Below, one piece after another: positions 4,385 to 27,611 of a DNA stretch of 64,000 nt. The translations under genes and the position numbers were made by a program. Numbering within the stretch: the first letter of the stretch is position 1; each line of letters starts with the position of its first letter. The notes below the pieces were generated by a model. It was not told the origin of the DNA. It was given only the letters and a program-made list of their open reading frames with translations, and did no database searches. The DNA comes from Methanomassiliicoccales archaeon. Its GTDB lineage: Archaea; Thermoplasmatota; Thermoplasmata; RBG-16-68-12; SOIM01. The stretch is taken from NCBI GenBank assembly GCA_030593295.1, contig JAUVHO010000006.1:281-64280 (forward strand), written 5' to 3'.

Positions 4385-4840
4385 ATGGAAGAAGACTTCT
4401 TTGATGAGTTGTCATCTGACCAAGAAGATGACATGGCCGCATATCGTTGTGAGAACTGCGGTTCCAGGAACGTATCACCCAACGGTGTGTGCATGTTGTG
4501 CTCCACTGAAAACAGATCCTGGACCCAGCGGCACCTCAAGAAAGAGGGGATAGTGGGCAGTCGCTCTCAGGAGAGGCGTGAAAAGCTCACCATGTACTTC
4601 GGGCTTGTACTCATAGTCCTGGGCGGTCCAGGGATCGTTGCTGCCTCGTATCTTCATGATTGGCTGAGTATCCCGGCACCTAGTCCCGCGTTCAACACAT
4701 ATGAATCGTTCGGTCCGGTGAACTCGTTCGTCGCTATCCTTGGACTGGCTACCACCGTAATCGGGATTCTCTTCCTGGTTGTGTCCCTCATGATTTCCAA
4801 GAAGATGGACAGGGCCCAGCTCCCAGAATCTTCTCACTAG
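4385..4840 (+). CDS. Zinc-ribbon membrane protein
   Basis: ATG with a GGAGGAA SD 7 nt upstream. Zinc-ribbon pattern CENCGS...CMLC, followed by two TM helices. Confidence 0.55.
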   Translation: MEEDFFDELSSDQEDDMAAYRCENCGSRNVSPNGVCMLCSTENRSWTQRHLKKEGIVGSRSQERREKLTMYFGLVLIVLGGPGIVAASYLHDWLSIPAPSPAFNTYESFGPVNSFVAILGLATTVIGILFLVVSLMISKKMDRAQLPESSH

Positions 4841-7702: not shown

Positions 7703-10700
7703 CTATCGTCCAGAGCGCCAGTAGGTTCCACCAACTTCTCTAAAATGGCCTTCGAATCCATCGAGGATGGAGGCTGTTTCTCTACTGTCGTCCCCGAGGA
7801 ACATCTCCTCTCTGACATCATGGTCCAGGTTCTTGACGACCTCTTGCAGTTCCGCCCTGGTAGTCATCTCGAGGTTGGAGGATGATACCACCGCCAGATG
7901 GATGCGCTTTCCATGGAGAATCGCCACCTTGTATTCATCGAAGTCCAGATTCTTGGACTTTCCTATGCCAGGTGCTCTCGTCCGCTGCCTTATCAGACCA
8001 TACGGGACGGTTCTCTTGTCAGTCATGTTGACTTCCTTGATGAGTGCACCGTCCTCTCTGATCAAATAGCCCACATATATCTCCGGTTTGTTGGCAATAT
8101 AGTACACACACATAAGCAGAATCACCACCGCTGCCAGAATGATCCAGAGCCAGAAATCTTCGTTCAGTTCTATTATGACCCTGACGTCCACGTAAGAGGA
8201 ATTGACCCCGTCGCTCACCGTTATTCTAATGAGATCCCCGCTCATACTTGAAGGGTACCTGAGAGTCAGGTTGAAGCCGTCTGTGGTCACATGTCCGCTA
8301 TCTACCGAGATGACCAAGGAGTCCATGGGAGTGTCGATATCATGAACGTACTCCATTATGTCCAGTACTTTGTCCCTATCAGCCGTGGTCTTGATGTCCG
8401 GAATGTCGTCTATCACGGGTGCATCATTGACCGGGTTCACCAGGACGATCACCACGTCTTCCACCAGAGCTCCAGTGGGGTCGGTCGCTCTTATGGTGAT
8501 TATCTCGAACCCGAACCAGTCAGGCTCCGCCCACATGTCCACTGTCTTGTTGGCGTTGATCCTGATTTTCACTGATTCATTACCTGAAGTGTAGTACAAG
8601 TTGTCCCCGTCGATGTCGAGGAAGTAGTAGTCCATGTTGGTGAAGAACACGTTCAGCACCATTTCATCCTCATCGAAGGAAACATCAGGTAACAGGTGGA
8701 GCTTCTCGGGCGGGTAGTCATCCAATATCGTTATGTTGATGACCTGGAAATCGGTGGCATTCCCGTCAGAGACCCATATGGTCACTGGCACCGTCTGCCC
8801 AAGCATTGACTGGGGATAGTTCATGACAAGTCCGAGGTTGTTCAGCGGATTGGTCCAGATGTGGGCGCTGTCGGAGGTCAATACTGTAAGCTGATCCAGG
8901 GGAGTATCCTCATCGTTGATGTACGGTGACAGATCGAAGTTGTATGAATAGTCGTAGTGGACGATAATATCCGGAACGCCCGAGATCGTGGGTGGTTTGC
9001 TCACAGATATGATTGGTTCCGGTGTGGAAAGCCCAGAGACTTGATCTTCAGATCTCAGGCCAACTTCATCCCATGCGATGCCTCTCAGGATAACGCCTTT
9101 CAGTGTCTGGTTCCCTATGGTCCACAAGGCCGAGCCATCCGGGGGAGCCTCCGTGGCGATTGTGTGAAGCTGTCCGTCATCATATCTGAGCTCAACTAGG
9201 ACGGCATCAGGATCCACTATGTACACAATGGTCTCAGTGCCGTTTATCTCAGAGAAGTCAAGGGGTTGCAGGATCTGTATGGATGGCGGTGTGCAGTCGA
9301 TCTCGATGTTTGTCACGCTGTCCTCGGCTGTAAAGTTACTCGAAGTTCTTGCTGTGGCCCGAATACTCGTTACCCTGTCCCCAACAGCGCATGAATCGAA
9401 TGTGTACGTCCCGTCGAGGTCGGAATCAAATCCAATGGCTCTCCAAGACGCGCCCTCGAAGTACTCGAAGGAGATGTTCGAGACTGGTCCGCTTACCGAA
9501 TATGCGAGATTGTATGTGCCTGTGATATGCTCGTCCGGCACTGGACTGAGGATGGTCACCGAAAGTGAGGACCACAGGGCTGTGTACCAGTACATTCCCT
9601 GCCCGGCAGTATCAAAGACCGTGCTTGCTCCTCCAGTTCCCATTGTCGTGTTCATGACCTTACCTGAAGGTGCGACACCGGAGGCGTCCATGTCATACAT
9701 ATAGTATGTGTTTATTGGACTCGAGGGTGTGACCAGGCTGGTCGGTTGAATTGTGGAATCATACGCCAAGATGAATCTCTCTCCACCGTTGACTGCGGTC
9801 ACATTGATCTCCAGGCGGAGAAGCCGGGGAACGGCATTCGTGAAGGTGTATTGGGCACCGTTACCTATGTTCAGGGTAAGCGGATTGGGAGTGGTGCTGT
9901 CAATCGTTATGGTCGGCGACGTCACGATCTCCTGCGGGTCAGAGCCATCAGGCATCACGTGGTATACACTCGCGATGATCTGCACGTTGGCCGAGGTTTC
10001 TTCTGGACCTATCGTGGTCAGAGGTGTCTGCCTATTGAACTCGATAACAAACCATCCTATATCGGCCTCATCGGTTGCGTTGTCTCGTTCCATGATGATC
10101 TGGGTTGGCGAAAGGGCCATGGTGACCGATGCAATGCCGGCGGTATCATCCAGGATGAAGGGTGTGCGTCCCAGGCTCTGGCCACATCCGATTTGCACGG
10201 AAGCGAATGCTGCCGAACGATTTGTATCGACTGTGGCTGGAAGTATGACGCTCTTCTGATACTCACCGGGTCCGAAGTGAGCATTCCCCGACAACACCCT
10301 GCTCCCATCACTTAGCTCCACGGCCTGCCAGAATATCTCTGTGATGTTGTCTGGAGATCCAGATGCGCCTCTGTCAAACATGATGTTGGTCGGGTTCGTC
10401 AGCTGAGCCCGGAGCATTCTCGAACCCAGGTCCTGGCCAGTGTGGGGGGTCCGGAATCCAGCAAGGATGAAGGTCTTGTCCAAAGCCACTGGTGTTCCCA
10501 ATGTCGCGTTGACCCAGGTCGTAGTCCCTGTCATCGAAAGAACCGACCCCGTCTGGACATCGATGTCACCTGGATTTGTGAACTCCACTACCTGCCAGAA
10601 GACCCTATGAGCAGGGTTCGCCGAATCGACCCTGAACTGAAGGTTCGATGTGCTGGTAATCTCTCCGACTGTCAGGTCGTCATAGTTCCAGTGTTGGTCA

Positions 10701-11557
10701 GCCGCTGCTGGCGTCCTCGACCATGTCAAGAACGCCTGGTCGATTGGAGATATCGGACTGATGGCCACGTTCGTTGTCGTTGAACTTTGGGATGTTATGC
10801 CTCGCTGAACTTTCACTCCTGAGTAATACTCAACCACATACCATTGGATCGTCATTGGAACTGGTGTGACCTCATTAGTCACCCGTTCGAACTCAAGGGT
10901 TGTTGGCGAGGCTATCCTGCCGCCGATCTCTGAACCTACCGGTCTATTGCTGTCGTGACGGCTGTTGAAGATCAGGAAGGATCTGGACATGTTGAGTTGC
11001 GATATTGGGACGGTTGTGATTCCATTTGCCGCACTCACTGCTGTTCCGCTCTGAACACTCTTGACTCCTGTGCCAATGGTGACGTTGGTGGGGGGATCGG
11101 TGGCCGTTGGATTACCGTAGTAGATGTAGTAATGGTCATCAGACGAAGAGATGTTCAACCCCTTCTGGAGCTCGAAGTGGAGTGTTGTTTTCGGGTCATT
11201 CCATGAGGATCCAAGGTCAAGGGTTCTGTTGATCTCAATCCATTGGGTCGAATCCCAGTAGACGATTCTGATGTCGTCCCCGTCAATCTGAGACTTACCT
11301 GTCGAAACGAGAGCTGAGTGATTGAAAGCTGTGGAGATTGTGTAACCGGCTGGGAATGCCGAGAGGCCTGATGTGACCGTGATCTGCTGCCTATACTGGT
11401 ACCAAGTTCCCCACCAAGGTCTCGGGAGTTCATCGAAGTACAGGTTCAAGGTGTGTGGTCCGGCATTGAAGTTCACATTGCCGCTTCCAGTGGGCCACGA
11501 TGGTGATATTGTCAGAAGTAGGAACAGTGCTACGACGATGGCAATTACCCTTCTCAT
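7703..11557 (-). CDS. Giant surface protein, paralog 3 (1284 aa): signal peptide, DUF2341-like module, cadherin/Ig-like modules, C-terminal TM helix, 127-aa cytoplasmic tail
   Basis: ATG with a GGGAGGAG SD 5 nt upstream; ATGA overlap with the upstream stop (11554-11557). N-terminus MRRVIAIVVALFLLLTISPSWP. DUF2341-like segment GDDIRIVYWDSTQWIEINRTLD...HYYIYYGNPTA. Modules end in VNDAP. TM helix FWLWIILAAVVILLMCVYYI. Confidence 0.9.
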   Translation of the reverse strand: MRRVIAIVVALFLLLTISPSWPTGSGNVNFNAGPHTLNLYFDELPRPWWGTWYQYRQQITVTSGLSAFPAGYTISTAFNHSALVSTGKSQIDGDDIRIVYWDSTQWIEINRTLDLGSSWNDPKTTLHFELQKGLNISSSDDHYYIYYGNPTATDPPTNVTIGTGVKSVQSGTAVSAANGITTVPISQLNMSRSFLIFNSRHDSNRPVGSEIGGRIASPTTLEFERVTNEVTPVPMTIQWYVVEYYSGVKVQRGITSQSSTTTNVAISPISPIDQAFLTWSRTPAAADQHWNYDDLTVGEITSTSNLQFRVDSANPAHRVFWQVVEFTNPGDIDVQTGSVLSMTGTTTWVNATLGTPVALDKTFILAGFRTPHTGQDLGSRMLRAQLTNPTNIMFDRGASGSPDNITEIFWQAVELSDGSRVLSGNAHFGPGEYQKSVILPATVDTNRSAAFASVQIGCGQSLGRTPFILDDTAGIASVTMALSPTQIIMERDNATDEADIGWFVIEFNRQTPLTTIGPEETSANVQIIASVYHVMPDGSDPQEIVTSPTITIDSTTPNPLTLNIGNGAQYTFTNAVPRLLRLEINVTAVNGGERFILAYDSTIQPTSLVTPSSPINTYYMYDMDASGVAPSGKVMNTTMGTGGASTVFDTAGQGMYWYTALWSSLSVTILSPVPDEHITGTYNLAYSVSGPVSNISFEYFEGASWRAIGFDSDLDGTYTFDSCAVGDRVTSIRATARTSSNFTAEDSVTNIEIDCTPPSIQILQPLDFSEINGTETIVYIVDPDAVLVELRYDDGQLHTIATEAPPDGSALWTIGNQTLKGVILRGIAWDEVGLRSEDQVSGLSTPEPIISVSKPPTISGVPDIIVHYDYSYNFDLSPYINDEDTPLDQLTVLTSDSAHIWTNPLNNLGLVMNYPQSMLGQTVPVTIWVSDGNATDFQVINITILDDYPPEKLHLLPDVSFDEDEMVLNVFFTNMDYYFLDIDGDNLYYTSGNESVKIRINANKTVDMWAEPDWFGFEIITIRATDPTGALVEDVVIVLVNPVNDAPVIDDIPDIKTTADRDKVLDIMEYVHDIDTPMDSLVISVDSGHVTTDGFNLTLRYPSSMSGDLIRITVSDGVNSSYVDVRVIIELNEDFWLWIILAAVVILLMCVYYIANKPEIYVGYLIREDGALIKEVNMTDKRTVPYGLIRQRTRAPGIGKSKNLDFDEYKVAILHGKRIHLAVVSSSNLEMTTRAELQEVVKNLDHDVREEMFLGDDSRETASILDGFEGHFREVGGTYWRSGR

Positions 11558-14500
11558 CGCGACTCCTCCCGTGAGCTGTCGTCACCCTTCGCTTCCTCCC
11601 CAGATTCCTGGAGATTCCCATTCTTATTGTTACCGTTGAGATGCTCTATGTCCTCTGTGCTCTGGCCTTCCTTGAGATCTGGAAGGTGTCTGCACAGGAG
11701 GCCATGAACACCCGCGAACCTATGCACGAATCCATCCCAGTCCTCCAATTCGGCCGCGTATGTGCTCTCAACATCCTGAATAGCCTCGCTGATCGGCTGC
11801 AAATTCCATGGCGTCTCACGGCCACGGTAGACGACTGCGAGAAATACATGCTCGCCTCTTTCTAGGGCGATCTTCCTATCTCCGAAGTCTATCTGCTTGA
11901 CGGGTGAGTCCTCCACCTCTTTGAATGAGTCCTTGATGAATTCTTGGATGGCCGTCAGCATGTTTGAGAAAATATCCTCGTCGATATCTGTCTGTTTCCC
12001 GACCACCGTGTGGTGGATCAGGCTTCCGTTTCTGTATATCAGGAATGCTTCGTCAATGTGGATCCTAGAGAAGAACCCTCTTGAGAATAGTACAAGAATC
12101 ACTGATAGAAGAAAAGCTACGATGAAAGACCAGGGCCAGAGTATTTGGTCCCATACTGACGGAGGCGGTGCTCCCACGATTCTCACATTGAACGACCCAA
12201 AGGCTGTCTTATTGCCATCGCTGATGTCAATCTGTATGGTGTCAGTCCCCTCAAATGGGTAGTTGAGGATCAGGATCGATCCCGCCAGGGTCACCGTGGT
12301 CTTTGCACGCTCTCCCGATGCGGATATGATGAGGTCCGAGAAATCGTTGTCGATATCGAACACATAATCCGACAAGTCCAGAGTGTATATCTGGTCCTTT
12401 TGGATGGTCAGGTCTGGAATATCGAGAATATATGGAGCATCATTCACTGGTATTACCGTGATTCTGGCGGTTTGCTCTGCGATGGCCCCATATGGGTCCG
12501 TTGCCCTGAAGGTCACATACTCTTGGCCGAACCAGTCCTGCGTTGACGAGAATGAGACAAGGAACGTGGAGGAGTTGATGGTCACTGTGACATTGGATGA
12601 AGCACTTGAATAGGTCAATGTGTCAGCATCATTGTCCGCGAAGCAGATGGTTATGTTGAACGCGTCAGGAAGTGTCGTGTCTTCAAAGAACGAATAGTCT
12701 GGAATGATGGACGCGACCTCCGGGGGCCAGTTGTCTGTGACTGTGATCTGAATATCTTGATATGCTTCGGCCAGGCCATCTGAGGCCGTTATCCTCACTT
12801 CAATCGTTAGCCCTGACATGCTCTCAGGGTAATGAACCTCCATCACCGTGTTGACTGAACTGTTGAAGAATATGTGGGCGGGGTCGTTCGTTGAGATGAA
12901 CAGCTCTGAGGTCTGGTTGTCCACATCCTCGATGTATGGTGCCAGGTCGAATATGTAGTTGTAGAACGGCCTTGCCGGGTCCTCATAGTGTACCATCAGA
13001 TCGGGGACTCCCGATATCGTCGGTGGATCGTTGACCGGCAGAACGGTCACCAGGATGATGTCCTCTGCCCTTGCATTCTCCGGGTCCACACCCCTGAAAC
13101 TGACTATCTCGACACCGAACCAGTCCTCAGGGGCATTGAAGTCAACCGAGTGGTTCTCGTGGATCGTGATCTCGGTGTGGATGTTCCCGCTTGTATAGAA
13201 CAGACTGTCTTGGTCAGGGTCATCGAAGTAATCGTCAAGATTGAAGCGGTCCTTGACCTCCTGACCTTCGAACAGGACCACGTCCGGGAGCTCTCTGATA
13301 AGGACAGGGACGAAGTCATCTGAGACAGTTATCGCCAGTACCGTTGACATCTGCCCCCCATGCTCGTCCTCAACGGTCACTATGGGGTAGACCGTTGTGC
13401 CCATGAGCTCTTCTGGATAGGTGAAGGTCCCCCACAGTCCATTGAACGAAATGCTGCCTGAATCATCACTCGAGAGGGTGAGATTATCCCGAGCCGTTTC
13501 GACATCACTCACATAGTCGTAGAAATAGTATGTGTAAGGCTCACTGTAGTGGATCGTGAATGGGGTTATGCTCTGTATTATTGGGCGATCGTTGACAGAA
13601 GTTATGGTAATGGAAAGCGTCTGAGCGTCGACGTAGCCATCACTGTCTCTCAGCCATATCATCAGGTCGTCAGTTCCGAATGCATCTGGCACCGTTGTGA
13701 AGGTGATCAGGTGGTTGCCAACGATATCGTTACCGGTGACAGTGGTCAACGAAGGATCTTGGTCTGTCAATGACCACATGAGTTCCGCGAGCGAGTCTTG
13801 AGGGTCGCTGGCATAAGAAGAAAGGTCTAAGATCCAAGTTCCATAATCCTCCGGCTTCACCTGATTCGGGATTGTACCCACAATGGTCGGCATCACATTT
13901 ACCTCCACCACTTCCAGGTTGGCAATCCCTGTGATGTTGTCCTGGTTCACAGCGGTGACCTGAATCCACCCATTGAGATTCTCTGTGTCCTGAGCCTTGA
14001 GCGTCGCATGGGTTGGAGACGAACTGGTTATGTTGCCGGCATTGGTGTTCCACAATGGACCGATGAGCGTCACTTCATTGCCATCTGAATCGGATCCAGT
14101 TGCCGTGAAGTTCTGGAAATCCCCTATGAGAAGTGTGATATTGTCTGGTTGGACCATAATCGAAGCTAGATCCCCTGCTATGACCGTTATCGTGTCCGAT
14201 GTGTTCGTATCACCAAACCCATCATCGATTGAGACCGTTCCGACCCCCACTGTTGTCGCATCGAATGTTGACGTTGTGGAAGGTCCAGACGTTATCGTTC
14301 CAATGCCTCCATTGACTATCCAGGCCACAAACGCGGTTCCGATTTGATTGCCGTCACCGTCGTACTCGTATGCGGTCAAGTTCACGTGTTCATCTGCGGT
14401 CAACGTGCCAGGACTCCAGGGCTCTATTCCCACTGATGCTCTGGAACCCGTTATTACTTGGAACGTGTTCGTGGTGTTCGAGTGCCCGTTTCCATCGTCA

Positions 14501-16497
14501 GCGGTCACATCGCCCATGCCTGGAGTGGTAGCGTCGAATACGGCTGAAGAACTCGGTCCAGCGGGTATCGTTCCGATTCCGCCTGATACGCTCCAATTCG
14601 CCATGATTGGTCCGATTGCATTCCCTTTGGAGTCATAAGCAATGACGTTGAACAACTGGACATCGTCCGTCGTCAGGGTCCCAGGGTCCCTCGGGTCGAT
14701 GCCAATCCTCGCAGCATTTCCCGCCAGAACGTTCACCAGTGTGTAGTTCGAGATCGAATCGGCCGTGTTGTTGCAGTACACTCTCCACGTCCCGACCATC
14801 CCCGGATTATAGACTCCGAATGCGTCCACCGTCCCCCAAGGATCATCCGTTTCCCATTTCTCGGTGAAAGGTGTCGTGTGATGGAATACATCATGTCCAA
14901 TTGCGTCGAGATCCACCCATTCATCCGTGGTCCCTGTCCATGTCGGCACTGACATGTGGATGTGATCAAGAATGCCAAAGAACTGGTAGGTCACACTCAT
15001 GTTCAAGAGCGTTGGGCTGAGCATCGGGTCAGTGGTGGTCAGGTTCGCTCTGAACCTGATTGCTGGATCTGGGATTGACTGTAGACTGCCTCCTGAGAAT
15101 ATCTCTGTCCATGACATGCCCGAATCTGTTGAGTGCCAGTACGAAACATTGGTGCCTGGCGGGGTATTCTCATGTGCGTTGAGTGTTTCCCACCCCACCC
15201 AATTGCCAGGTGCCAGGTCTTCTGTTTCTACATGTCCTTCAGAAGCATATGCTTGATAGTCGATTCTAACTTCTTCCAGTATTGGTTTCACGGTCCTGTT
15301 GAGCGTGTCCATCTCCACCTTGTATTGTATGCATCTGCCAGATGGAGAAGTGATCTGTGATCCGCCAGGTGAAGCGTATGCCGCGGACCATGCAGACCAA
15401 CTGCCAGAGCAGTCACCTGAGCGGGTCTGAACAGTCATACTTGTCTGTCCGGGGACTGTCGAGTTCCAGCTGATGTTGCCCCAGTTGACTGTGAATCCTG
15501 CATCGGAAACTCTCGAGATGAAAGTCCCGTTCGCCAACCCGCCCTCCTGGGTGATGTAGTCCAAGTGAAGTCTGGGACGGTTGCCTGGAACCACTGATTC
15601 TTTGCTGTGGAACAGTTTTTCATTCACTGATGGACCTATTTCCGGAGTGATGAGAATCACACCATAGTTAGGCTTGGTACCGTTGCTCCAATCTCTGAAG
15701 AGTTGAGCAATGTCCCAGTAATACCAGTTGGTCTGATCTCGTATTGAATATACTGTGTCTTCAGGAACGGGATTGAAGTCTCCGCCATCCACTGTCCAGA
15801 GGGTCGACCCATCTCTGTGCCTGTACGTGACACCGTCGTTAGTCACGGAGCCATCGCCAGTACCCTCGACCCAGGACGCATTTACCTGATGTAAGGACAC
15901 ATTCAGAGGTTGGGATGAACTTGAGGTTTCCAGTTTCAGCATTATCTGTGCCGATGTCACCAAGTCATAGGATTGCAGAGGAGTCAGATTGAATTCGATC
16001 ATAGCCCTCTTCGGATCGACTGGTTCAGTGTTTATGGTCGTTGAAACGCCATAGTTCCTATTCGAGAAGCCATTGTTGATGTAGGCATCCTTTCCTCCGA
16101 TGTCAGTGATTTGGAACTCGATCCATTGAGGCGTGCCAGCTGAATCCGTGTTCATTATTGTCACATTTCCCGGATCGTTAGCCACGTCCACGTTCAGAAT
16201 CACTGTTCCCTGTAGAAAATCGCTTTGCGATGTGTCAACAAACTCGCTGGAATACCTTTGGAGTGTAACGTTGCTCGCAGACACGCTCACATTGTTGGAT
16301 GTGTAGTTGGCCGCGTTCTGGAAGTCCCATGTAGCCGTCGTCGTCCCATCGCCATTGTCAACGAGTGTGGGATCTCCCGAAGACAGATTGAAAAGAGACA
16401 AGAGATTGGACAGGATCATCAAAGCTAGGACTATGCTTAAGATGGCTCTTCTATTTCGAGGAGGGTTTCCTTCATTGCTTTGAAGCATGTTCTTCAC
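11554..16497 (-). CDS. Giant surface protein, paralog 2 (about 1647 aa): N-terminal anchor, DNRLRE-like module, three Big_2-like Ig repeats, cadherin-like modules, C-terminal TM helix, Roadblock-like cytoplasmic tail
   Basis: The track ORF starts at TTG 16545. I prefer GTG at 16495-16497 because CCGGAGGGAA lies 5 nt upstream, exactly as in paralog 1. The N-terminus (V)KNMLQSNEGNPPRNRRAILSIVLALMILSNL parallels paralog 1. Modules end in VNDRP, VNDPP and VNDAP. TM helix ILWPWSFIVAFLLSVILVLF. Confidence 0.9.
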   Translation of the reverse strand: MKNMLQSNEGNPPRNRRAILSIVLALMILSNLLSLFNLSSGDPTLVDNGDGTTTATWDFQNAANYTSNNVSVSASNVTLQRYSSEFVDTSQSDFLQGTVILNVDVANDPGNVTIMNTDSAGTPQWIEFQITDIGGKDAYINNGFSNRNYGVSTTINTEPVDPKRAMIEFNLTPLQSYDLVTSAQIMLKLETSSSSQPLNVSLHQVNASWVEGTGDGSVTNDGVTYRHRDGSTLWTVDGGDFNPVPEDTVYSIRDQTNWYYWDIAQLFRDWSNGTKPNYGVILITPEIGPSVNEKLFHSKESVVPGNRPRLHLDYITQEGGLANGTFISRVSDAGFTVNWGNISWNSTVPGQTSMTVQTRSGDCSGSWSAWSAAYASPGGSQITSPSGRCIQYKVEMDTLNRTVKPILEEVRIDYQAYASEGHVETEDLAPGNWVGWETLNAHENTPPGTNVSYWHSTDSGMSWTEIFSGGSLQSIPDPAIRFRANLTTTDPMLSPTLLNMSVTYQFFGILDHIHMSVPTWTGTTDEWVDLDAIGHDVFHHTTPFTEKWETDDPWGTVDAFGVYNPGMVGTWRVYCNNTADSISNYTLVNVLAGNAARIGIDPRDPGTLTTDDVQLFNVIAYDSKGNAIGPIMANWSVSGGIGTIPAGPSSSAVFDATTPGMGDVTADDGNGHSNTTNTFQVITGSRASVGIEPWSPGTLTADEHVNLTAYEYDGDGNQIGTAFVAWIVNGGIGTITSGPSTTSTFDATTVGVGTVSIDDGFGDTNTSDTITVIAGDLASIMVQPDNITLLIGDFQNFTATGSDSDGNEVTLIGPLWNTNAGNITSSSPTHATLKAQDTENLNGWIQVTAVNQDNITGIANLEVVEVNVMPTIVGTIPNQVKPEDYGTWILDLSSYASDPQDSLAELMWSLTDQDPSLTTVTGNDIVGNHLITFTTVPDAFGTDDLMIWLRDSDGYVDAQTLSITITSVNDRPIIQSITPFTIHYSEPYTYYFYDYVSDVETARDNLTLSSDDSGSISFNGLWGTFTYPEELMGTTVYPIVTVEDEHGGQMSTVLAITVSDDFVPVLIRELPDVVLFEGQEVKDRFNLDDYFDDPDQDSLFYTSGNIHTEITIHENHSVDFNAPEDWFGVEIVSFRGVDPENARAEDIILVTVLPVNDPPTISGVPDLMVHYEDPARPFYNYIFDLAPYIEDVDNQTSELFISTNDPAHIFFNSSVNTVMEVHYPESMSGLTIEVRITASDGLAEAYQDIQITVTDNWPPEVASIIPDYSFFEDTTLPDAFNITICFADNDADTLTYSSASSNVTVTINSSTFLVSFSSTQDWFGQEYVTFRATDPYGAIAEQTARITVIPVNDAPYILDIPDLTIQKDQIYTLDLSDYVFDIDNDFSDLIISASGERAKTTVTLAGSILILNYPFEGTDTIQIDISDGNKTAFGSFNVRIVGAPPPSVWDQILWPWSFIVAFLLSVILVLFSRGFFSRIHIDEAFLIYRNGSLIHHTVVGKQTDIDEDIFSNMLTAIQEFIKDSFKEVEDSPVKQIDFGDRKIALERGEHVFLAVVYRGRETPWNLQPISEAIQDVESTYAAELEDWDGFVHRFAGVHGLLCRHLPDLKEGQSTEDIEHLNGNNKNGNLQESGEEAKGDDSSREESR
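11742..12063 (-). other. Roadblock/LC7-like (MglB-type) cytoplasmic domain of paralog 2
   Basis: Sequence IHIDEAFLIYRNGSLIHHTVVGKQTDIDEDIFSNMLTAIQEFIKDSFKEVEDSPVKQIDFGDRKIALERGEHVFLAVVYRGRETPWNLQPISEAIQDVESTYAAEL. The pattern is hairpin, long amphipathic helix, three strands, C-terminal helix. Assignment is by eye only. Confidence 0.55.
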
Positions 16498-16557
16498 ACA
16501 TTCCCTCCGGCTCGTGGAACGTTCAGCTTCTGCTCCCCGCATCAAGCTCTGGGCTCG

Positions 16558-16718: not shown

Positions 16719-19700
16719 CTAAGCCTTCAGATGCTTCTCCATTATCTCCCCGACTCCGGAGAATTCGCTTAGTGATCTATCCACACTCTCAATCATTTCC
16801 GAGTATTTCTTTTCAATCTCTTCTATGGCATTTTTCATCGGCTGGACGTTTCTCGCGTTCTCGTGGCCGCTGTAGACGACTGCCAGGTAGACACTCTTCC
16901 CCCTCTCGATCAATATCTTGTGATTCCCAAACTCAATCCTCTTCACGGGGGAGTCCTCAACTTCCCTGAAGGAGTCACCGATGAATGACTGGATGGCAGT
17001 CAACATCCCCGAAAATATGTCCTTATCCATTTCCGTCTCTGTTCCGATGGCTGTGTGTGCAATCAACATCCCGTCTGCGTGGATCAGGAAAGCCTCGTCG
17101 ATGTATATCTTCCCCAGGAACTGCTTGGCCAGAAGGAACGCTATTAACAGAGTCAGAATGGCCACCAGTAAGGACCACGGCCAAAATATCTGATCCCAGA
17201 TAGTCGGAGCAGGCGGACCGACAACCCTGACGTTGAACGATGTGAAGGTGGTCTTGTTCCCGTCACTGACCCTCAATTGCAAAATGTAGTCTCCTTCTTC
17301 GTCGAAGCTGAAGATGATGTAAGAACCGGCTATCGCTATTGTTGCATCCAAGTGCACGCTCACTATCGATATGTCCAGTTCGGAGAAATTGTTGTCAATG
17401 TCAAGAATGTGGTTGAGAAGATTAAGGGTATGGACAGCTCCTTCGGCTAGCTCTTGATCTGGGATGGGGGGGTACACAACTGGCGCGTCATTCACAGGAA
17501 TCACGGTGATTCGTATCGTCTGCTCCAGAACTGCGCCATGAATGTCCATTGCTCTGAAGGTGACTAACTCGAATCCAGACCAGTTGGCCGCGGATGAGAA
17601 AGAAACAACCGATGTCGTCTCGTCTATCTCCACAAAGACGTTGTTGGATATGCTTGAGTATGACAATTCATCCCCTTCCGGGTCAATGAAGTGATTGTCC
17701 AGGTCGAATGCATTGCTCAGCGGAATGTCCTCGTGCAGTTCATAATCTGGTATGGGTGAGGATATCTCTGGCGGCCAATTCTCCAGTATGGTGATGTTGA
17801 TGTCCTGGTATGCCAGACTTGAGTTGTCGGAGACCGTGATCCTGACCACAACTGTCTGCCCTTTCATGCTCTCGGGATAATGGATTTCCATGATCGAGTT
17901 CTTCGAACTGTTGAAGAAGATGTGGGTTTGGTCGTCAGTTGATATGCTCAATTCTGAGATGGGGTTGTCCTCGTCGTAGATATAGGGCTCCAGATCAAAG
18001 GTGTAATTGTAGTTGGGTCTGGAAGGATCGTCATAGTGAACTGCCAAGTCGGGGACTCCGGATATCGATGGAGCGTCGTTCACCGGCAACACCGTGACCA
18101 GAACGATGTCCTCAGCCCTTGCGTTGTAGGGATCTATCGCCCTGAAGGATACGGTTTCCACACCGGACCAGTCATCAGGTGCTATGAAGTCGACCGAATG
18201 GTTCTCATGGATGACTATCTGGGTGTTCACATTTCCGCTCGAGTAGTAGAGACTGTCCCCATCCGGATCATCGAAGTAGTCATCCAGGTCGAAGTAATCT
18301 CTGGCCACCTCTCCCTCGAAAATTACAACATCTGGTAGCTCCCTAATCAATACGGGCACATAATCCTCCGAAACGGTTATGGCTAGCACTGTTGTCCTCC
18401 ACCCGCCATCTCCATCATACACTGTTACTTCCGGATAGACCGTTTGACCGTTGAACTCCACCGGATAGGTGAACGTGCCCCAGAGCCCAGAAAATGACAC
18501 GTATTGGGGTTGAGAACTCTCTAGAACGAGCTCCTCTTTGGGTGTTTCCACATCCTCTACGTAGTCGTAGAAGTAATATGTGTACGGTACGTCATAGTGA
18601 ACCGTGAACGGCGTAATGCTGTGGATTATCGGGTTGTCGTTGACCGGAGTTATGTTCACCCAGAACTTCTGGCCGTCCACCTGTCCATCGCTGTCCCTCA
18701 GCCATATTGTCATCTCGTCGCTCCCGTAGGCGTCTTTCACTGTGGTGAACATGATTATGTGGTTACCTGTTACCTCATCTCCAGAAATTATGATCAGTGA
18801 GGGGTCATTCTCCGTGAAGAACCAGGTCAGGTCTGATAGGGGGTCCTGCGGGTCGCTAGCAAAGGAAGAGATATCCAATGTCCAACTGCCATAGTCCTCC
18901 GGCCTCTGCTGACTGGGTATTGTTCCTACAATCTCTGGTTTCACATTCACGGCCGCAACATCTATCGTCGAACTGGCAGTCACGTTGTTCTGGAATACGG
19001 CTGTGACCCTTATCCATCCATTTGACAGCTCGGTGTCTCGAGCCTGGAGCATTGCTCCACTGGCCGCGGAGTTCACGATTGTGCCCGCGTTGGTTTCCCA
19101 GAGTGGATTGACAAGGGGGACAATATTGCCATCTGAATCAGATCCTTCCGCAGTGAAGTTCTGGTACTCTTCGGTGAGCAATATCACACTGGGTGGATCA
19201 AGAACGATTATGGCCAGCTGACCTGCAATAACAGGTATCTGATCGGTAGTGTTCGTAAGCCCCATTCCACCGTCGATTGTGATCGTTCCAACGCCAACAG
19301 TGGTCGCATCAAAGACCGATGTCTGGGAGGGACCGACCGGTATTGTTCCAATCACGCCACTGACGGACCATGACACAGTTGCCGGTCCGATCTGATTCCC
19401 ATCCGAATCATACGAATATGCAGCGAGATTCACGTTATCGTCTGTGGTCAGAGTTCCAGGGCTCCAGGGCTCAATGCCTATTCGACTTCGGGCGCCTGCG
19501 ACCACTTGAATGATGTTCGTTGTGTTCGAATGTCCATTTCCATCGTCCGCACTCACCGTACCCAGGCCAGGTGTTGTTGGATCGAAAAGAGCCGAAGAAC
19601 TCGGCCCGATTGGTATGGTCCCAATTCCTCCAGAGACACTCCAATTTGCCGCAATTGGACCAATGGAATTGCCTTTGGAATCATATCCAATGGAGTTGAA

Positions 19701-21938
19701 CAACTGTGTGTCATCTGTGGCTAGGATCCCAGGATCCCACGGGTTGATTCCTATCCTTGCCACGTTACCGCTGGTCACACTGACCACGGTGTAGTTCGAG
19801 ACCGAATCATCCGAATTATTGCAGTAAACTCTCCAGACTCCTACCATACCTGGGTAGTAGAGGCCCGAAGTGTTGACCAAGCCCCAAGGGTCGTCCGTTT
19901 CCCACTTCTCAACGAACGGTGTTTGATGATGGTATGCATCATGGCCGAGGGCGTCAAGGTCGACCCATTCATCAGTCGTCCCGATCCATGTCGCTTGAGA
20001 CATGTGAATGTGATGAAGAGGTCCAATGACCACGTACCGGAGATTCATTTCTAGAAGAGTCGGAGTCACCGAAGTATTCGTCGTTTCCAGATTTGCCCTG
20101 AACCTGATCTTCGGTATGGGGGTGGCACTCAAATTGTCTCCAGGATTCAGATTGGTCCAGTTGGATCCCGAATCAATGGAATACCAGAAAGTTATCATCG
20201 TTTCTGCCGGTGTAACCATGGTTGCGTTGAAAACCTCCCAACTCCCAACGTCTAAAGGTATGAAGTCCTCTGTCTCCACTCTTCCGCTTAAGGAATACTT
20301 CAGGAAGCTGACATCAACCTCTAACAGGGCAGGAGTATAGGCCCTGTCAAGAGTCCCGAGATATGCTCTGTACTGAATGTATCTGGCAGAGGGGCTTGGT
20401 ATGGTCTCTCCGCCTGAAATCGTCAACTCGCCTGACCAACTGCTCCAAGTGCCATCGATTGTTGGAGAATGACCCGTCCTTGTCTGCAGAGATATGCTGG
20501 TGGAAGCCGCTGGTATGTTCTCTCCCCACGACATGTTATTCCAGACGGCCGAGCTTCCTGCATCATATATCACAGAAGTCAGGTTGCCCAGAGGTAAGTA
20601 CTCATACACGCCCATGATGCTGATATTGTCTACACTCACGCTAGCAATTACATCGTTGAACGTATTCGCCAGCAAATGAAACTGAAAGCTGATTTCATAC
20701 GTTCCCGGATTTGTACTCCATTGGCTTATGTCCACCGCTATTGATGTCCAAGGCTCAATTCCGACCAGACTTTTCGTCCACGTCAATGAATTGTTGATGT
20801 ATACATCGATGTCCGCAACACTGATGTTGGCTATCTCCTCTGCTGTGTAGTCGAATGTCAGGTTCACCATTCCCGGCATGTCTGGAGTATATGATTGTTT
20901 GTTGAAAGTCTGATTGGCATAGGCTATCTCATCGAACTGCATCCAGGGTCCACCATCTATCAGCACGATCTCGTCAACGTACAGTTCAATTGGATTGGGG
21001 GTTGGAGCGTCCGTAAGATGAATGCGTAACACATCAACAATAGCTAACGTGCTGCTTCCTGCGGGACCGGACCCCTCAAATCCAGTGACGTCGAACGTGT
21101 AGGTGTTCCATCCCGAGACCATCGGCTGTGAGGAGGTCTCCCAAAACGTGCTGACAGTGTCCGAAACAGCCGCCAATTGCAGATGCATCGTCTCGCCGAG
21201 ATCATCAAGGGTGTATGCCTTCACGGCTATCGCACTTACAGTTGACCAGTTCCAGGTTCCTGTGTCATTCCTTTCCACCCCATACTGCTTGCCAGGAGTG
21301 TTGAGAGTGAGCACAATCCTCATATTACCAGTACCTTCAGCTATTGGAGGTGCCGAATTCTGGAAGAAATCTCCATCATTCTTCGATTCTTTTGCATCTT
21401 CAGCCCATTCAGTGAGGACCACATCGTCCATTGAATCGAATATCTGGTTGGTGATGTTGGAAACAACGTTGTCATGAAACCACAGATCCTGATCGGTCGA
21501 AGACCATTCCACCGTCACATTGTCAGTGCTGCCGTTCGTCAGCGTCCAGTAATTGCTGGATGTCAAGTTCCCATTTCTGATCATTTCGGTGTGGTTGTGG
21601 GAGAGAAGAACACTTCCATCTGGAGTAGTGGTCACATTCTGCTTTGAGCCCGAATCGAAATCAGCTTGTGTTGTCTGGTTCCACCAATACTCGCTTGCCG
21701 AAAGATTCGCCTCTCCACCACTGATGGTCGCATTCAACGCCGTGTAGTTCGCCGGATTCTGAAATGACCATGTTGCAGTTGTGGTTCCGTCCAAGTTGTC
21801 CTGCAGAGATGGATCTCCGATTATGCCTCCAAACATCGAGACAAAGTTTGAGAATATCAGAATACCAAGAATTACGATCAATAGAGCATTCTCTGTGCCA
21901 GAAGGGTTACCTCTTCTATCTTCAGGTGCTTTCTTCAC
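16719..21938 (-). CDS. Giant surface protein, paralog 1 (1739 aa): N-terminal anchor, large N-glycosylation-sequon-rich ectodomain, Big_2-like Ig repeats, cadherin-like modules, C-terminal TM helix, Roadblock-like cytoplasmic tail
   Basis: GTG start with CCGGAGGGAA 5 nt upstream. N-terminus MKKAPEDRRGNPSGTENALLIVILGILIFSNF. Long collinear similarity to paralog 2, for example HIHMSQATWIGTTDEWVDLDALGHDAYHHQTPFVEKWETDDPWG versus HIHMSVPTWTGTTDEWVDLDAIGHDVFHHTTPFTEKWETDDPWG. TM helix IFWPWSLLVAILTLLIAFLLA. Confidence 0.9.
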   Translation of the reverse strand: MKKAPEDRRGNPSGTENALLIVILGILIFSNFVSMFGGIIGDPSLQDNLDGTTTATWSFQNPANYTALNATISGGEANLSASEYWWNQTTQADFDSGSKQNVTTTPDGSVLLSHNHTEMIRNGNLTSSNYWTLTNGSTDNVTVEWSSTDQDLWFHDNVVSNITNQIFDSMDDVVLTEWAEDAKESKNDGDFFQNSAPPIAEGTGNMRIVLTLNTPGKQYGVERNDTGTWNWSTVSAIAVKAYTLDDLGETMHLQLAAVSDTVSTFWETSSQPMVSGWNTYTFDVTGFEGSGPAGSSTLAIVDVLRIHLTDAPTPNPIELYVDEIVLIDGGPWMQFDEIAYANQTFNKQSYTPDMPGMVNLTFDYTAEEIANISVADIDVYINNSLTWTKSLVGIEPWTSIAVDISQWSTNPGTYEISFQFHLLANTFNDVIASVSVDNISIMGVYEYLPLGNLTSVIYDAGSSAVWNNMSWGENIPAASTSISLQTRTGHSPTIDGTWSSWSGELTISGGETIPSPSARYIQYRAYLGTLDRAYTPALLEVDVSFLKYSLSGRVETEDFIPLDVGSWEVFNATMVTPAETMITFWYSIDSGSNWTNLNPGDNLSATPIPKIRFRANLETTNTSVTPTLLEMNLRYVVIGPLHHIHMSQATWIGTTDEWVDLDALGHDAYHHQTPFVEKWETDDPWGLVNTSGLYYPGMVGVWRVYCNNSDDSVSNYTVVSVTSGNVARIGINPWDPGILATDDTQLFNSIGYDSKGNSIGPIAANWSVSGGIGTIPIGPSSSALFDPTTPGLGTVSADDGNGHSNTTNIIQVVAGARSRIGIEPWSPGTLTTDDNVNLAAYSYDSDGNQIGPATVSWSVSGVIGTIPVGPSQTSVFDATTVGVGTITIDGGMGLTNTTDQIPVIAGQLAIIVLDPPSVILLTEEYQNFTAEGSDSDGNIVPLVNPLWETNAGTIVNSAASGAMLQARDTELSNGWIRVTAVFQNNVTASSTIDVAAVNVKPEIVGTIPSQQRPEDYGSWTLDISSFASDPQDPLSDLTWFFTENDPSLIIISGDEVTGNHIIMFTTVKDAYGSDEMTIWLRDSDGQVDGQKFWVNITPVNDNPIIHSITPFTVHYDVPYTYYFYDYVEDVETPKEELVLESSQPQYVSFSGLWGTFTYPVEFNGQTVYPEVTVYDGDGGWRTTVLAITVSEDYVPVLIRELPDVVIFEGEVARDYFDLDDYFDDPDGDSLYYSSGNVNTQIVIHENHSVDFIAPDDWSGVETVSFRAIDPYNARAEDIVLVTVLPVNDAPSISGVPDLAVHYDDPSRPNYNYTFDLEPYIYDEDNPISELSISTDDQTHIFFNSSKNSIMEIHYPESMKGQTVVVRITVSDNSSLAYQDINITILENWPPEISSPIPDYELHEDIPLSNAFDLDNHFIDPEGDELSYSSISNNVFVEIDETTSVVSFSSAANWSGFELVTFRAMDIHGAVLEQTIRITVIPVNDAPVVYPPIPDQELAEGAVHTLNLLNHILDIDNNFSELDISIVSVHLDATIAIAGSYIIFSFDEEGDYILQLRVSDGNKTTFTSFNVRVVGPPAPTIWDQIFWPWSLLVAILTLLIAFLLAKQFLGKIYIDEAFLIHADGMLIAHTAIGTETEMDKDIFSGMLTAIQSFIGDSFREVEDSPVKRIEFGNHKILIERGKSVYLAVVYSGHENARNVQPMKNAIEEIEKKYSEMIESVDRSLSEFSGVGEIMEKHLKA
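16793..17108 (-). other. Roadblock/LC7-like (MglB-type) cytoplasmic domain of paralog 1
   Basis: Sequence IYIDEAFLIHADGMLIAHTAIGTETEMDKDIFSGMLTAIQSFIGDSFREVEDSPVKRIEFGNHKILIERGKSVYLAVVYSGHENARNVQPMKNAIEEIEKKY. Roughly two thirds identical by eye to the paralog 2 tail. Confidence 0.55.
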
Positions 21939-22123: not shown

Positions 22124-22735
22124 CTAGGAAGCCGGACTGCCCGCGGCATCTTCTGTGGTCGCTGACACGTCCTCGGAGAGCTTCCTCTCCACTATCCGTC
22201 TCATGATCTCGTTGGTCAGGTCCTCGAATATCCTCTCCACATTCTCTCCGGTCAAGGCGCTGGCTGTCGAGTACTCCGCGTGGTTCTTCTCGGCCACTCG
22301 TCTGAGTTCTTCTTCGCTTACCACCTTTTCGTCCCCGAGATCATTCTTGTTGCCAACCGTGACGATGGGAACCTCGCCGGCAACTGCGTGTGTTCTTTCC
22401 AGCCAATCCTCAACACCTTCGAGGGTCCGAGGTCTTGTCAGGTCGCAGACAGCAATAATGCCATCCACTCCGAAGAAGTAAGCCTCTTGGAGAAGGGCTC
22501 TGAAGCCATGTTGGCCCATGATATCCCATATCGCCATATCAACGGCAATATCCCCATCTCCCATTGGATTTGGAATGACCATCTCTCTCTTTGTGATCTT
22601 GGTGCCCAATGTAGTTATGTACTTGTCGCTGAACTCATCGTACACGAACTTTCTTATCAGGCTCGTCTTCCCGACTGCGGAGTCTCCAACTAGGCACACC
22701 TTCAACTTCAGCAGGTCACTGTAATCTCTTTTCAT
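22124..22735 (-). CDS. Ras/Rab-like small GTPase (203 aa)
   Basis: G1 GDSAVGKT, switch I YITTLGT, G3 WDIMGQ, G4 GNKNDL, G5 SAL. The overall layout matches Rab/Ras (LKVCLVGDSAVGKTSLIRKFVYDEF...). No C-terminal Cys. SD GGTGG upstream. Confidence 0.9.
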   Translation of the reverse strand: MKRDYSDLLKLKVCLVGDSAVGKTSLIRKFVYDEFSDKYITTLGTKITKREMVIPNPMGDGDIAVDMAIWDIMGQHGFRALLQEAYFFGVDGIIAVCDLTRPRTLEGVEDWLERTHAVAGEVPIVTVGNKNDLGDEKVVSEEELRRVAEKNHAEYSTASALTGENVERIFEDLTNEIMRRIVERKLSEDVSATTEDAAGSPAS

Positions 22736-23027: not shown

Positions 23028-23139
23028 CTTCTTACACACGTATAATCTCGATCCCTTGCTCCTGTCATCGTTTGGTCTGAAACCTTTGTGGTGACCGGAT
23101 GTGAAAGAGTTTTTTAGTTGCTATGCATTGAAACGTGCA

Positions 23140-25890: not shown

Positions 25891-25994
25891 GACTGGATAT
25901 TTGTCCACGGCTATTTGAACGACAAAGTTTTATACATTCTCGGTCTTACTAATTTCCGGACTGCGGGAGCTGATGGTTATTGAATGGGAGGGGC

Positions 25995-27611
25995 ATGATG
26001 CCCGTGCATGATGGTGGCAAGCCAATCGTACTCACTTCATCGAGGGCCGAAATCAGCAGATACAGTGGTGACCCTTTTGCAGCCTTCATGGCCACATTCC
26101 CACGCAAGTGGATACCAAAATGGTTCATGAAGGGGGAATGGTTCAATCCGGATGACAACCCGGATGGGACGGCCAAGTTCGTTCCCTACGGACTGAGGAA
26201 GATTGAAGCGCTGTTGGTCGACGAGTTCGGGGAAGAGAACGTCGCCACGGTCCATCCGGAGAATCTGGACAGGTTTGTCGGACCAAGGACCAAGGTGGTA
26301 GGGATTAGTTCTATGGATCCCATGGGTCTTGCGTATGTGAGCATTACATACAACTCCATGATCGGCATCGGAGGTCGTTCGGTGGACGAGGTGGAGTTCG
26401 AGAAGATATTCCGCTCCCCCGCCCTGAACCAGTATCACCCCAGGATTATCGTAGGAGGCAGCGGGGCGTGGCAGCTCAGGGACGCAGGAAAGGTGGACGA
26501 GTTCGGCATCGACACTCTCGTTCATGCCGAGAGCGAATTGATTGTGGTCGACCTGTTCAGGAATGCCATGAACGGCAACGACCTCCCAAGAGAGGTCTCC
26601 GGGACCCGCGTCCCCCTCGAGAAGATACCATCTATCAGGAAAGCGGCCAGCTACGGCGTCGTTGAGATAACCCGTGGATGCGGCAGGGGATGCCAGTTCT
26701 GCTCACCCACTAACAGAACGAGGCATTCGATCCCGGTCGGGTCAGTGATGAAGGAGGTCGAAGCTAACATCAGAGGAGGCGCACGCTCCATCTTCACGGC
26801 GACCGAGGACATGCTTATCTACAAATGCGGACCCAAGTTCGTTCCCAATCGCGAGGCCGTTGTTAACCTCTACCAATCGATTGCGGACTATCCAGGCGTG
26901 GAGCACATCCACCTCTCTCACACGTCTCTGGCACCTGCTGTGAAAGACCCCAAGATGATCGAGGAGCTCACACCCATCCTTATGCCCAAGACCAAATACG
27001 TCAAGGGTTTCAGGAACTATACAGAAACGTTCATCACGGCCCTTTTCGGCATAGAGACTGGAAGCATCAGACTGATGGAGAAGTTCATGAGAGGGAAGGC
27101 TCTCCCTTATGACGTCAAGGACTGGCATGAGGTGGTCACACAAGGCGTCGGAGTATTCAATGACAATGGGTGGAAGCCCATGGGCACTATCATCACCGGT
27201 TGGCCCGGGGAGACCGAGGACGACACACTGCAAAGCCTCGAGCTCCTGGACAAGCTCAAAGGCAGCAAGATGTTCTACGTTCCCCTGCTCTTCATCCCTC
27301 TTGAGGACTCCAAGCTCCGCGATGAGAAGAGAATCTCGCTTGAGACCATGACCGAACTTGAGTGGGAGGTCATGGCCAATTGCTGGAAGGAGAATATCAA
27401 GGTCTGGGACCCCGGCAAACAACCGATCTTCTCGGTGGTCGCCTTCCTCTCATACTTCCTGTTCTACAAGTGGAAGCACGGAACAAAAGCCTTCAGGCCC
27501 ATAATGAAACTCGCTGGATTCCCTGATTCTTTCCTGGGAAAGGTCAGCCGAGGTTGCGACCCGACCCACTGCCTACCTGGAGAAGCGCCAGAAGGTAAGA
27601 TTCTCGGCTAG
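25995..27611 (+). CDS. Radical SAM protein with an N-terminal B12-binding-like domain, function unknown
   Basis: CxxxCxxC motif CGRGCQFC. ATG with a GGGAGGGG SD. TATA-like TTTATACA about 60 nt upstream. Confidence 0.85.
   Translation: MMPVHDGGKPIVLTSSRAEISRYSGDPFAAFMATFPRKWIPKWFMKGEWFNPDDNPDGTAKFVPYGLRKIEALLVDEFGEENVATVHPENLDRFVGPRTKVVGISSMDPMGLAYVSITYNSMIGIGGRSVDEVEFEKIFRSPALNQYHPRIIVGGSGAWQLRDAGKVDEFGIDTLVHAESELIVVDLFRNAMNGNDLPREVSGTRVPLEKIPSIRKAASYGVVEITRGCGRGCQFCSPTNRTRHSIPVGSVMKEVEANIRGGARSIFTATEDMLIYKCGPKFVPNREAVVNLYQSIADYPGVEHIHLSHTSLAPAVKDPKMIEELTPILMPKTKYVKGFRNYTETFITALFGIETGSIRLMEKFMRGKALPYDVKDWHEVVTQGVGVFNDNGWKPMGTIITGWPGETEDDTLQSLELLDKLKGSKMFYVPLLFIPLEDSKLRDEKRISLETMTELEWEVMANCWKENIKVWDPGKQPIFSVVAFLSYFLFYKWKHGTKAFRPIMKLAGFPDSFLGKVSRGCDPTHCLPGEAPEGKILG

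Follow-up and report, generated by a model that had tools for sequence, protein, structure and literature searches.

What does a Roadblock-type domain do on the inner end of a giant archaeal surface protein? The question is raised by a 64,000-nucleotide stretch of a Methanomassiliicoccales archaeon (contig JAUVHO010000006.1, positions 281 to 64,280; hereafter the window), in which a small Ras/Rab-like GTPase gene and three giant paralogous genes, here called A, B and C, lie together on the minus strand. The proteins encoded by A, B and C end in copies of one domain, degenerate in C, which sits next to the membrane on its cytoplasmic side. We found that this domain is predicted to have the Roadblock/longin superfold, that it recurs in thousands of archaeal and bacterial proteins, and that its genes are linked to those of Ras-like GTPases. 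With Roadblock/longin tails inside the membrane and a Ras-like GTPase gene as neighbour, the cluster looks like a compact receptor-plus-G-protein unit. On balance, we regard it as probable that the GTPase and the three giant surface proteins do work together, with the tails binding the GTPase. The features of the cluster, in window coordinates, are as follows.

22124-22735, minus strand: small Ras/Rab-like GTPase gene (203 aa; Pfam Ras PF00071, E 4.7e-37; NCBIfam small_GTP)
16719-21938, minus strand: gene A, a 1739-aa open reading frame (ORF) for a type-I surface protein
17127-17189, minus strand: C-terminal transmembrane helix of A, IFWPWSLLVAILTLLIAFLLA, from reading the sequence
16728-17114, minus strand: Roadblock/longin-like domain of A (aa 1609-1737; family hidden Markov model (HMM), E 4e-50)
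11554-16545, minus strand: gene B, a 1663-aa ORF, paralogue of A with the architecture of A
12082-12144, minus strand: C-terminal transmembrane helix of B, ILWPWSFIVAFLLSVILVLFS
11683-12069, minus strand: Roadblock/longin-like domain of B (aa 1493-1621; family HMM, E 2e-49), the copy that was modelled
11557-11682, minus strand: acidic, low-complexity C-terminal extension of B, 42 aa, without counterpart in A
7703-11557, minus strand: gene C, 1284 aa, the third paralogue
8093-8155, minus strand: transmembrane helix of C, directly before its tail domain
7802-8080, minus strand: degenerate Roadblock-like domain of C (aa 1160-1252; hmmsearch and hhalign)

Linkage of the domain to Ras-like GTPase genes

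The GTPase gene leads the cluster (order on the minus strand: GTPase, A, B, C), and 185 bp separate it from gene A, which follows on the same strand; as for MglB, the gene of the domain adjoins that of a small Ras-superfamily GTPase. The encoded GTPase also matches Pfam Roc and Arf, and its motifs read GDSAVGKT (G1), WDIMGQ (G3, with the catalytic Gln kept) and NKND (G4). An exact-sequence lookup of this GTPase returned two short contigs, in one of which the downstream gene lies at the same spacing. The first-pass annotation of this DNA had described the tails of A and B and left the adjoining Ras-family GTPase gene out of account; its presence strengthens the functional reading.

A scan of one-genome-per-species contigs with an 8-sequence alignment gave at least 584 loci that encode the domain, and the best 80 were analysed. 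Around the archaeal loci, 18 GTPase ORFs were found in the 159 kb that lie within 1.5 kb of the domain gene, versus 4 in the 511 kb farther away, an enrichment of about 14-fold. Nine of the 38 archaeal loci with both flanks have an adjacent GTPase gene, usually on the same strand and at a distance of 0-400 bp. In all ten evaluable bacterial loci, which come from four phyla, the GTPase gene lies immediately downstream. The bacterial genes form a module of four, encoding a coiled-coil protein, the domain protein, a Ras-family GTPase without the G3 Gln, and an output protein (HD-GYP, class III cyclase or other); in the domain protein, an N-terminal region precedes the domain and a transmembrane helix follows it, and the periplasmic end is OmpA or BON-like. 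Some Thermoplasmata loci (L056 10402-12355, L021, L022 and L048) carry two or three tandem Ras-like GTPase paralogues beside the domain gene, with Q, E or H as the G3 residue.

The main rival explanation is a pure dimerisation or scaffold role, in which the tail is a Roadblock/longin module without a GTPase partner that pairs, clusters or docks surface proteins, and the GTPase gene is coincidental or loosely related. Such a role would suit the 29 of 38 fully flanked archaeal loci that have no Ras-like GTPase within 1.5 kb, the lack of any domain-GTPase fusion among the top 150 family proteins, the genomes with several family members (three loci each in two metagenome-assembled genomes, MAGs), and the scaffold-like arrangement of two or three tandem copies in large coiled-coil cytoplasmic proteins. 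It also has a precedent in dynein LC7, a Roadblock protein that is not known to regulate a GTPase. A scaffold alone would leave unexplained the 14-fold enrichment of GTPase genes in the immediate flanks, with their strict adjacency and usually shared strand, as well as the unbroken adjacency in bacteria, and the most conserved surface of the domain is the very helix that MglB uses for GTPase binding. We consider it rather unlikely that the tails serve as scaffolds only.

Predicted fold and sequence affinity of the tails

From N- to C-terminus, protein A consists of a hydrophobic anchor or signal, a huge, adhesin-like ectodomain of Ig-like and cadherin-like repeats (Pfam Big_9, Cadherin_4 and Cadherin_5), one transmembrane helix and the Roadblock-like tail, which we place in the cytoplasm because basic residues come after the helix. 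The first-pass annotation had pointed to two similar segments right behind the C-terminal transmembrane helices, at 11742-12063 and 16793-17108. Both are real: they correspond to aa 1495-1602 of B and aa 1611-1716 of A, lie in frame on the minus strand, reproduce the quoted motif letter for letter, and start 5-7 residues past the helix in A and B. A plus-strand reading of the same positions was rejected, its frames being full of stops. The identity of two thirds that had been estimated by eye holds for the beta1-beta5 core (66%) and drops to 58% for the whole span (ungapped, 106 aa), and BLASTP aligned the tail of A with that of B at 54% over 127 aa (E 8e-52). The segments were also drawn too short, as the conserved domain takes in about 20 more residues, with a W-x-G motif and short helices, and ends at 11683 in B and 16728 in A. 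As for the divergent acidic or low-complexity ends, B has one, namely its 42-aa extension, whereas A ends 2 residues after the domain. MglB binds MglA allosterically through a D/E-rich C-terminal helix, and the extension of B (11557-11682) recalls that helix, as a resemblance only.

The fold of the tail was predicted with AlphaFold2, in one model from the two window sequences (predicted local distance difference test, pLDDT, 75) and in one of the B domain from an alignment of 44 family sequences (pLDDT 85.8; predicted template modelling score, pTM, 0.79). In the latter, DSSP assigned strands (E) and helices (H) as E4-12, E17-22, H31-50, E57-62, E65-71, E75-82 and H87-103, and three further short helices reach residue 128. 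The predicted domain is an alpha/beta sandwich of topology b-b-a-b-b-b-a (b, strand; a, helix) plus these short helices, with a five-stranded antiparallel sheet. The hairpin, long helix, three strands and C-terminal helix that had been proposed from the letters agree with it element for element. The core order b-b-a-b-b-b is that of Roadblock/LC7 domains, as the first-pass annotation had supposed, but the order is not Roadblock-like throughout: the canonical N-terminal helix is missing, and the C-terminal helices, packed on the sheet, continue the core to the longin order b-b-a-b-b-b-a-a. We attribute the missing N-terminal Roadblock helix to the transmembrane helix, which abuts beta1 at a distance of 5-7 residues.

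Foldseek searches of the PDB at E<=1e-3 gave 81 and 53 matches for the two models, of which 50 were listed for each, and among the matches listed (E 9e-6 to 9e-4) all are longin or Roadblock proteins. On the longin side, AP sigma, zeta-COP, VAMP7 and Sec22b were matched with TM-scores (TMq) of 0.51-0.66 at 8-13% identity; the top scores of 0.61-0.66, across 123-134 columns, belong to AP sigma (0.65-0.66), VAMP7 and Sec22b. On the Roadblock side, LAMTOR2, dynein LC7, the C-terminal domains of Rag proteins, MglB of Myxococcus and Thermus, and an Asgard Roadblock protein gave E values of 2e-4 to 9e-4 and TMq of 0.41-0.57, mostly at 14-21% identity, with single values of 0.57 for LAMTOR2, 0.56 for Myxococcus xanthus MglB and 0.55 for Rag C-terminal domains. 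The MglB entries included 6h5b, 6hjm, 3t12 and 1j3w, and the Asgard entry was 9jq8 (MK-D1 Roadblock2). The models thus place the tail in the Roadblock/longin superfold.

At the level of sequence, Robl_LC7 (PF03259) was the sole Pfam family to recur, and no unrelated family came out on top. The tail of A matched it over profile positions 15-90 of 91 (E 0.021) with 15 bits, below the gathering threshold of 23 bits; the tail of B had no Pfam match whatever, that of C had no Robl_LC7 match, and 11 of 44 relatives had sub-threshold Robl_LC7 matches. One relative, P0318 (family profile E 1.7e-22), clears the Robl_LC7 cut-off with 25.5 versus 23 bits. This protein is a 216-aa sequence from a JGI metagenome, and the roughly 80 residues that precede its domain resemble a further Roadblock-type unit in its second half; tandem Roadblock units may thus exist. 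Using hhalign, we aligned the family profile with the M. xanthus MglB sequence over 101 columns in register, from beta1 to the helix after beta5 (E 8e-4), and with a profile of 114 MglB sequences over 99 columns in register (probability 41%, E 2.9e-4). LAMTOR2 also aligned in register, if weakly (E 0.13), and no alignment was obtained with AP2S1 or the Sec22b longin. Of the query sequences used for MglB, LAMTOR2, DYNLRB1, AP2S1 and Sec22b, only that of MglB was validated (95% identity to a database protein of this name). We also queried the window and the 80 loci with MglB, LAMTOR2 and DYNLRB1 to look for Roadblock proteins that stand alone; the single match (E 0.045) is a member of the family itself. 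These sequence signals are weak but concordant in direction. Together, the fold matches and the Robl_LC7 and MglB signals indicate a domain of the predicted Roadblock/longin superfold with a probable affinity in sequence to the MglB-type Roadblocks, as a divergent branch and no standard Robl_LC7 member. The Roadblock interpretation of the first-pass annotation is supported, with these qualifications on topology and Pfam membership.

The domain might instead be functionally a longin, that is, an adaptor or regulatory module as in SNAREs, AP sigma and SRalpha (SRX), with an incidental similarity to MglB. The element order bb-a-bbb-a-a is the longin one, and both the top TM-scores and the longest structural alignments went to longins. 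In sequence, the balance tips the other way: identity to longins in the Foldseek tables is lower than to Roadblock proteins, hhalign is blank for AP2S1 and the Sec22b longin while MglB and LAMTOR2 align in register, and against the recurrent Robl_LC7 stands only Fuz_longin_1, sub-threshold in 2 of 44 relatives. Longin domains, too, commonly act as small-GTPase platforms, so that this explanation, which we regard as quite improbable, changes the name more than the mechanism. We also considered a sorting signal and rejected it, as the model shows the tail to be a folded domain some 125 aa in length.

Extent of the family and surroundings of the cluster

Genes A and B share 59% identity along 1290 aa, and the similarity of their tails equals that of the rest of the genes; it therefore reflects duplication of the whole gene and is no evidence for a domain. 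That the tail is a real domain follows from an exhaustive profile search seeded with the two window tails, which brought up 4120 cluster representatives at E<=1e-3, including 1868 at E<=1e-10. The tail of B had yielded nothing in a word-index homology search, which we ascribe to limited sensitivity because the exhaustive search found thousands. The explanation that there is no specific domain, merely a chance or compositional resemblance in the juxtamembrane tails of recently duplicated genes, could appeal to the A/B identity and to that first empty search, but it is already refuted by the thousands of representatives with unrelated ectodomains in bacteria and archaea, and by a confident structural model with consistent fold matches, and has next to no probability left.

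The domain measures about 125-129 aa, and its family has the consensus ..[VI]E.VFLI..DG.LI.H......D.DI.SGMLTA[IV]Q.F[VI].DSF...L..[LM]EFG..KIL[IV]E.G...[YF]LAVV..G....(helix)..IE..Y...L..W.G., in which no element is better conserved than the central helix (3.09 bits per column). The top 150 proteins contain 189 copies of the domain. A transmembrane-like segment lies at most 45 aa upstream in 108 of these copies, and no more than 60 residues separate 110 of them from the C-terminus. The ectodomains before the tail vary (DUF11, PKD, FG-GAP, Big_1, Big_9, LTD). In a second architecture, large cytoplasmic coiled-coil proteins contain two to three copies; in proteins of 1200-2400 aa without a nearby transmembrane helix (P0001-P0010) the copies recur at a period of about 505 aa, and an example is L016 6959-10375 of Thermoplasmata archaeon bin33 (CP070751). 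Some short family members (P0275, P0310) have a zinc-ribbon after the domain. Pfam and NCBIfam contain no model of the domain, and the database names of its members are 'hypothetical protein' or, in bacteria, 'OmpA-OmpF porin'.

The best 80 loci belong mainly to Thermoplasmata, Methanomassiliicoccales and related MAGs, and the closest match among them (94%) is in a Thermoplasmata archaeon MAG. Twelve of the loci are bacterial, from Thiothrix, Ghiorsea/Mariprofundaceae, Acidobacteriota (including Pyrinomonadaceae), Planctomycetota and other Pseudomonadota.

Within the window, gene C shares 32% identity with A and B across its last ~540 aa, and its domain was recovered with the family profile by hmmsearch (E 2.6e-10) and hhalign (probability 90%, E 1.4e-6). 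An ATGA at 11554-11557 contains both the stop codon of gene B and the start codon of gene C, an overlap that suggests translational coupling of these two giant genes.

The genes that flank the cluster on both sides are unrelated to it. Divergent from the GTPase gene lies an Lhr-type large helicase gene at 23101-25890 on the plus strand (DEAD, DEAD_assoc, WH_Lhr), followed by a radical SAM gene at 25980-27611; on the other flank, beyond a 630-bp gap, an ABC transporter ATPase and permease are encoded. The window contains two more giant surface proteins, one of 1587 aa at 54231-58994 on the plus strand, with a MAM-like domain, a C-terminal transmembrane helix and a poly-Glu tail, and one of 1178 aa at 50229-53765 on the minus strand, with PKD domains. 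Both lack the Roadblock-like tail, which is therefore not a general property of the surface proteins of this genome. A small protein at 4385-4840 (plus strand), without a Pfam match, carries a zinc-ribbon-like CxxC...CxxC motif at its N-terminus, with two hydrophobic segments behind it.

Proposed mechanism, known systems and significance

Roadblock and longin domains generally dimerise. In the receptor-plus-GTPase model the tails would do likewise, as homodimers or as heterodimers among A, B and C, and the dimer would form a platform fixed at the membrane, with its conserved central helix, D.DI[FL]SGMLTA[IV]Q.F[IV].DSF, binding the co-encoded GTPase. The platform might tether the GTPase under the surface protein, or it might modulate the GTP/GDP cycle in a GAP-like or GEF-like manner (GAP, GTPase-activating protein; GEF, guanine nucleotide exchange factor). 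A cytoplasmic GTPase switch would thereby respond to events at the ectodomain, or the ectodomain to the switch. In favour of this model, the central helix is equivalent to alpha2 of MglB, the helix that forms a hydrophobic interface with MglA (PMC6785124).

Several observations weigh against this model, beginning with the 29 flanked archaeal loci and the fusion-free top 150 proteins already described. The canonical Roadblock helix alpha1 ahead of beta1 is not present, the model opening with a strand. No copy in the window reaches the Robl_LC7 threshold, the hhalign probability versus MglB is just 24-41%, and profile searches of PDB sequences with the 2- and 44-sequence alignments returned nothing meaningful. 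In C, an 11-residue deletion in the most conserved helix removes the D.DIFSGMLTAIQ motif.

Among known systems, MglB/MglA of Myxococcus and Thermus comes close in several respects: the predicted core fold including the helix after beta5, a weak profile alignment in register over about 100 columns, a domain gene beside that of a small GTPase, and a most conserved helix equivalent to MglB alpha2. It differs in that MglB is small and soluble and has the N-terminal helix, whereas here a domain without that helix forms the tail of a single-pass surface protein of 1300-1700 aa. Moreover, the window GTPase is Ras/Rab-like with an intact DxxGQ and not of MglA type, and the window tails fall below the Robl_LC7 threshold.

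A second comparison is to the Rup GTPases of Group 1, whose four-gene neighbourhood was described by Wuichet and Sogaard-Andersen in 2014 (PMC4316618). There, the conserved domain of the membrane protein matched no Pfam model ('domain of unknown function'), and the GAP was unknown (PMC4316618). The four-gene module of our bacterial homologues fits this neighbourhood, and the window tail appears to belong to the family of the unnamed domain, as matched by description rather than by the authors' accessions. The window itself does not have the four-gene arrangement: no coiled-coil or output gene lies nearby, the GTPase keeps its Gln (DIMGQ), and the archaeal version is inverted, with an N-terminal ectodomain and a C-terminal domain.

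The actinobacterial conservon (CvnA sensor kinase, CvnB Roadblock, CvnC, CvnD GTPase) has been interpreted as bacterial G-protein-like signalling (PMC4316618; see also PMC13343842). Like the window cluster, it encodes a membrane sensor, a Roadblock protein and a small GTPase together. In the conservon the sensor and Roadblock protein are separate, the sensor is histidine-kinase-like and CvnC is needed, whereas here sensor and Roadblock domain are one polypeptide. Among the flanking genes scanned, neither a CvnA-type histidine kinase nor a CvnC (DUF742) gene was found alongside; a conservon-type reading was rejected, there being no kinase among them.

In eukaryotes, Ragulator/LAMTOR-Rag and SRalpha(SRX)-SRbeta likewise place a Roadblock/longin fold at a membrane as a docking platform for a GTPase, a function that our tails would share, and LAMTOR2 and the Rag C-terminal domains were among the best structural matches. 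Unlike the tails, these platforms are obligate heterodimers or heteropentamers, tethered by lipidated LAMTOR1 or the SRbeta anchor, and involve no surface receptor; a specific sequence relationship to them was not detected, as the hhalign result for LAMTOR2 illustrates. Asgard archaea also have Roadblock folds in genomes rich in Ras-superfamily GTPases, and 9jq8 was a Foldseek match. The Asgard Roadblock/longin proteins described are soluble or GTPase-fused, and their genes lie generally outside GTPase operons (PMC10933270). The present family, in contrast, is anchored by transmembrane helices, is found chiefly in Thermoplasmata and often shares an operon with a GTPase.

What is new here is a Roadblock-type platform as the tail of a single-pass surface receptor; in our literature search, no later paper turned up that gives the domain a name, reports Roadblock domains fused to transmembrane helices or follows up the Rup systems. 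Roadblock/longin domains are recurrent platforms for small-GTPase regulation, among them MglB in bacteria and Ragulator, TRAPP and DENN in eukaryotes, and no regulators of the prokaryotic Ras/Rab-like GTPases are known. Placing the Rup neighbour domain in the Roadblock/longin superfold would make it a testable candidate GAP, GEF or anchor for Rup GTPases. Thousands of unannotated archaeal surface proteins with DUF11, PKD, FG-GAP or cadherin-like ectodomains have in common one putative cytoplasmic signalling tail, and membrane-fixed Roadblock platforms linked to Ras-like GTPases are not limited to eukaryotes or Asgard archaea. We tentatively raise the possibility, which goes beyond what we would call probable, that the family is the missing cognate partner of the Ras/Rab-like ('Rup') GTPases of prokaryotes, in a receptor-G-protein system in which adhesion or the binding of a ligand at the ectodomain directly switches a small GTPase. 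If this is true, the tails would be a free-standing analogue, and possibly a relative, of the eukaryotic membrane-tethered platforms Ragulator-Rag and SRalpha-SRbeta, and a receptor-G-protein system would be widespread in Thermoplasmatota, outside the Asgard lineage.

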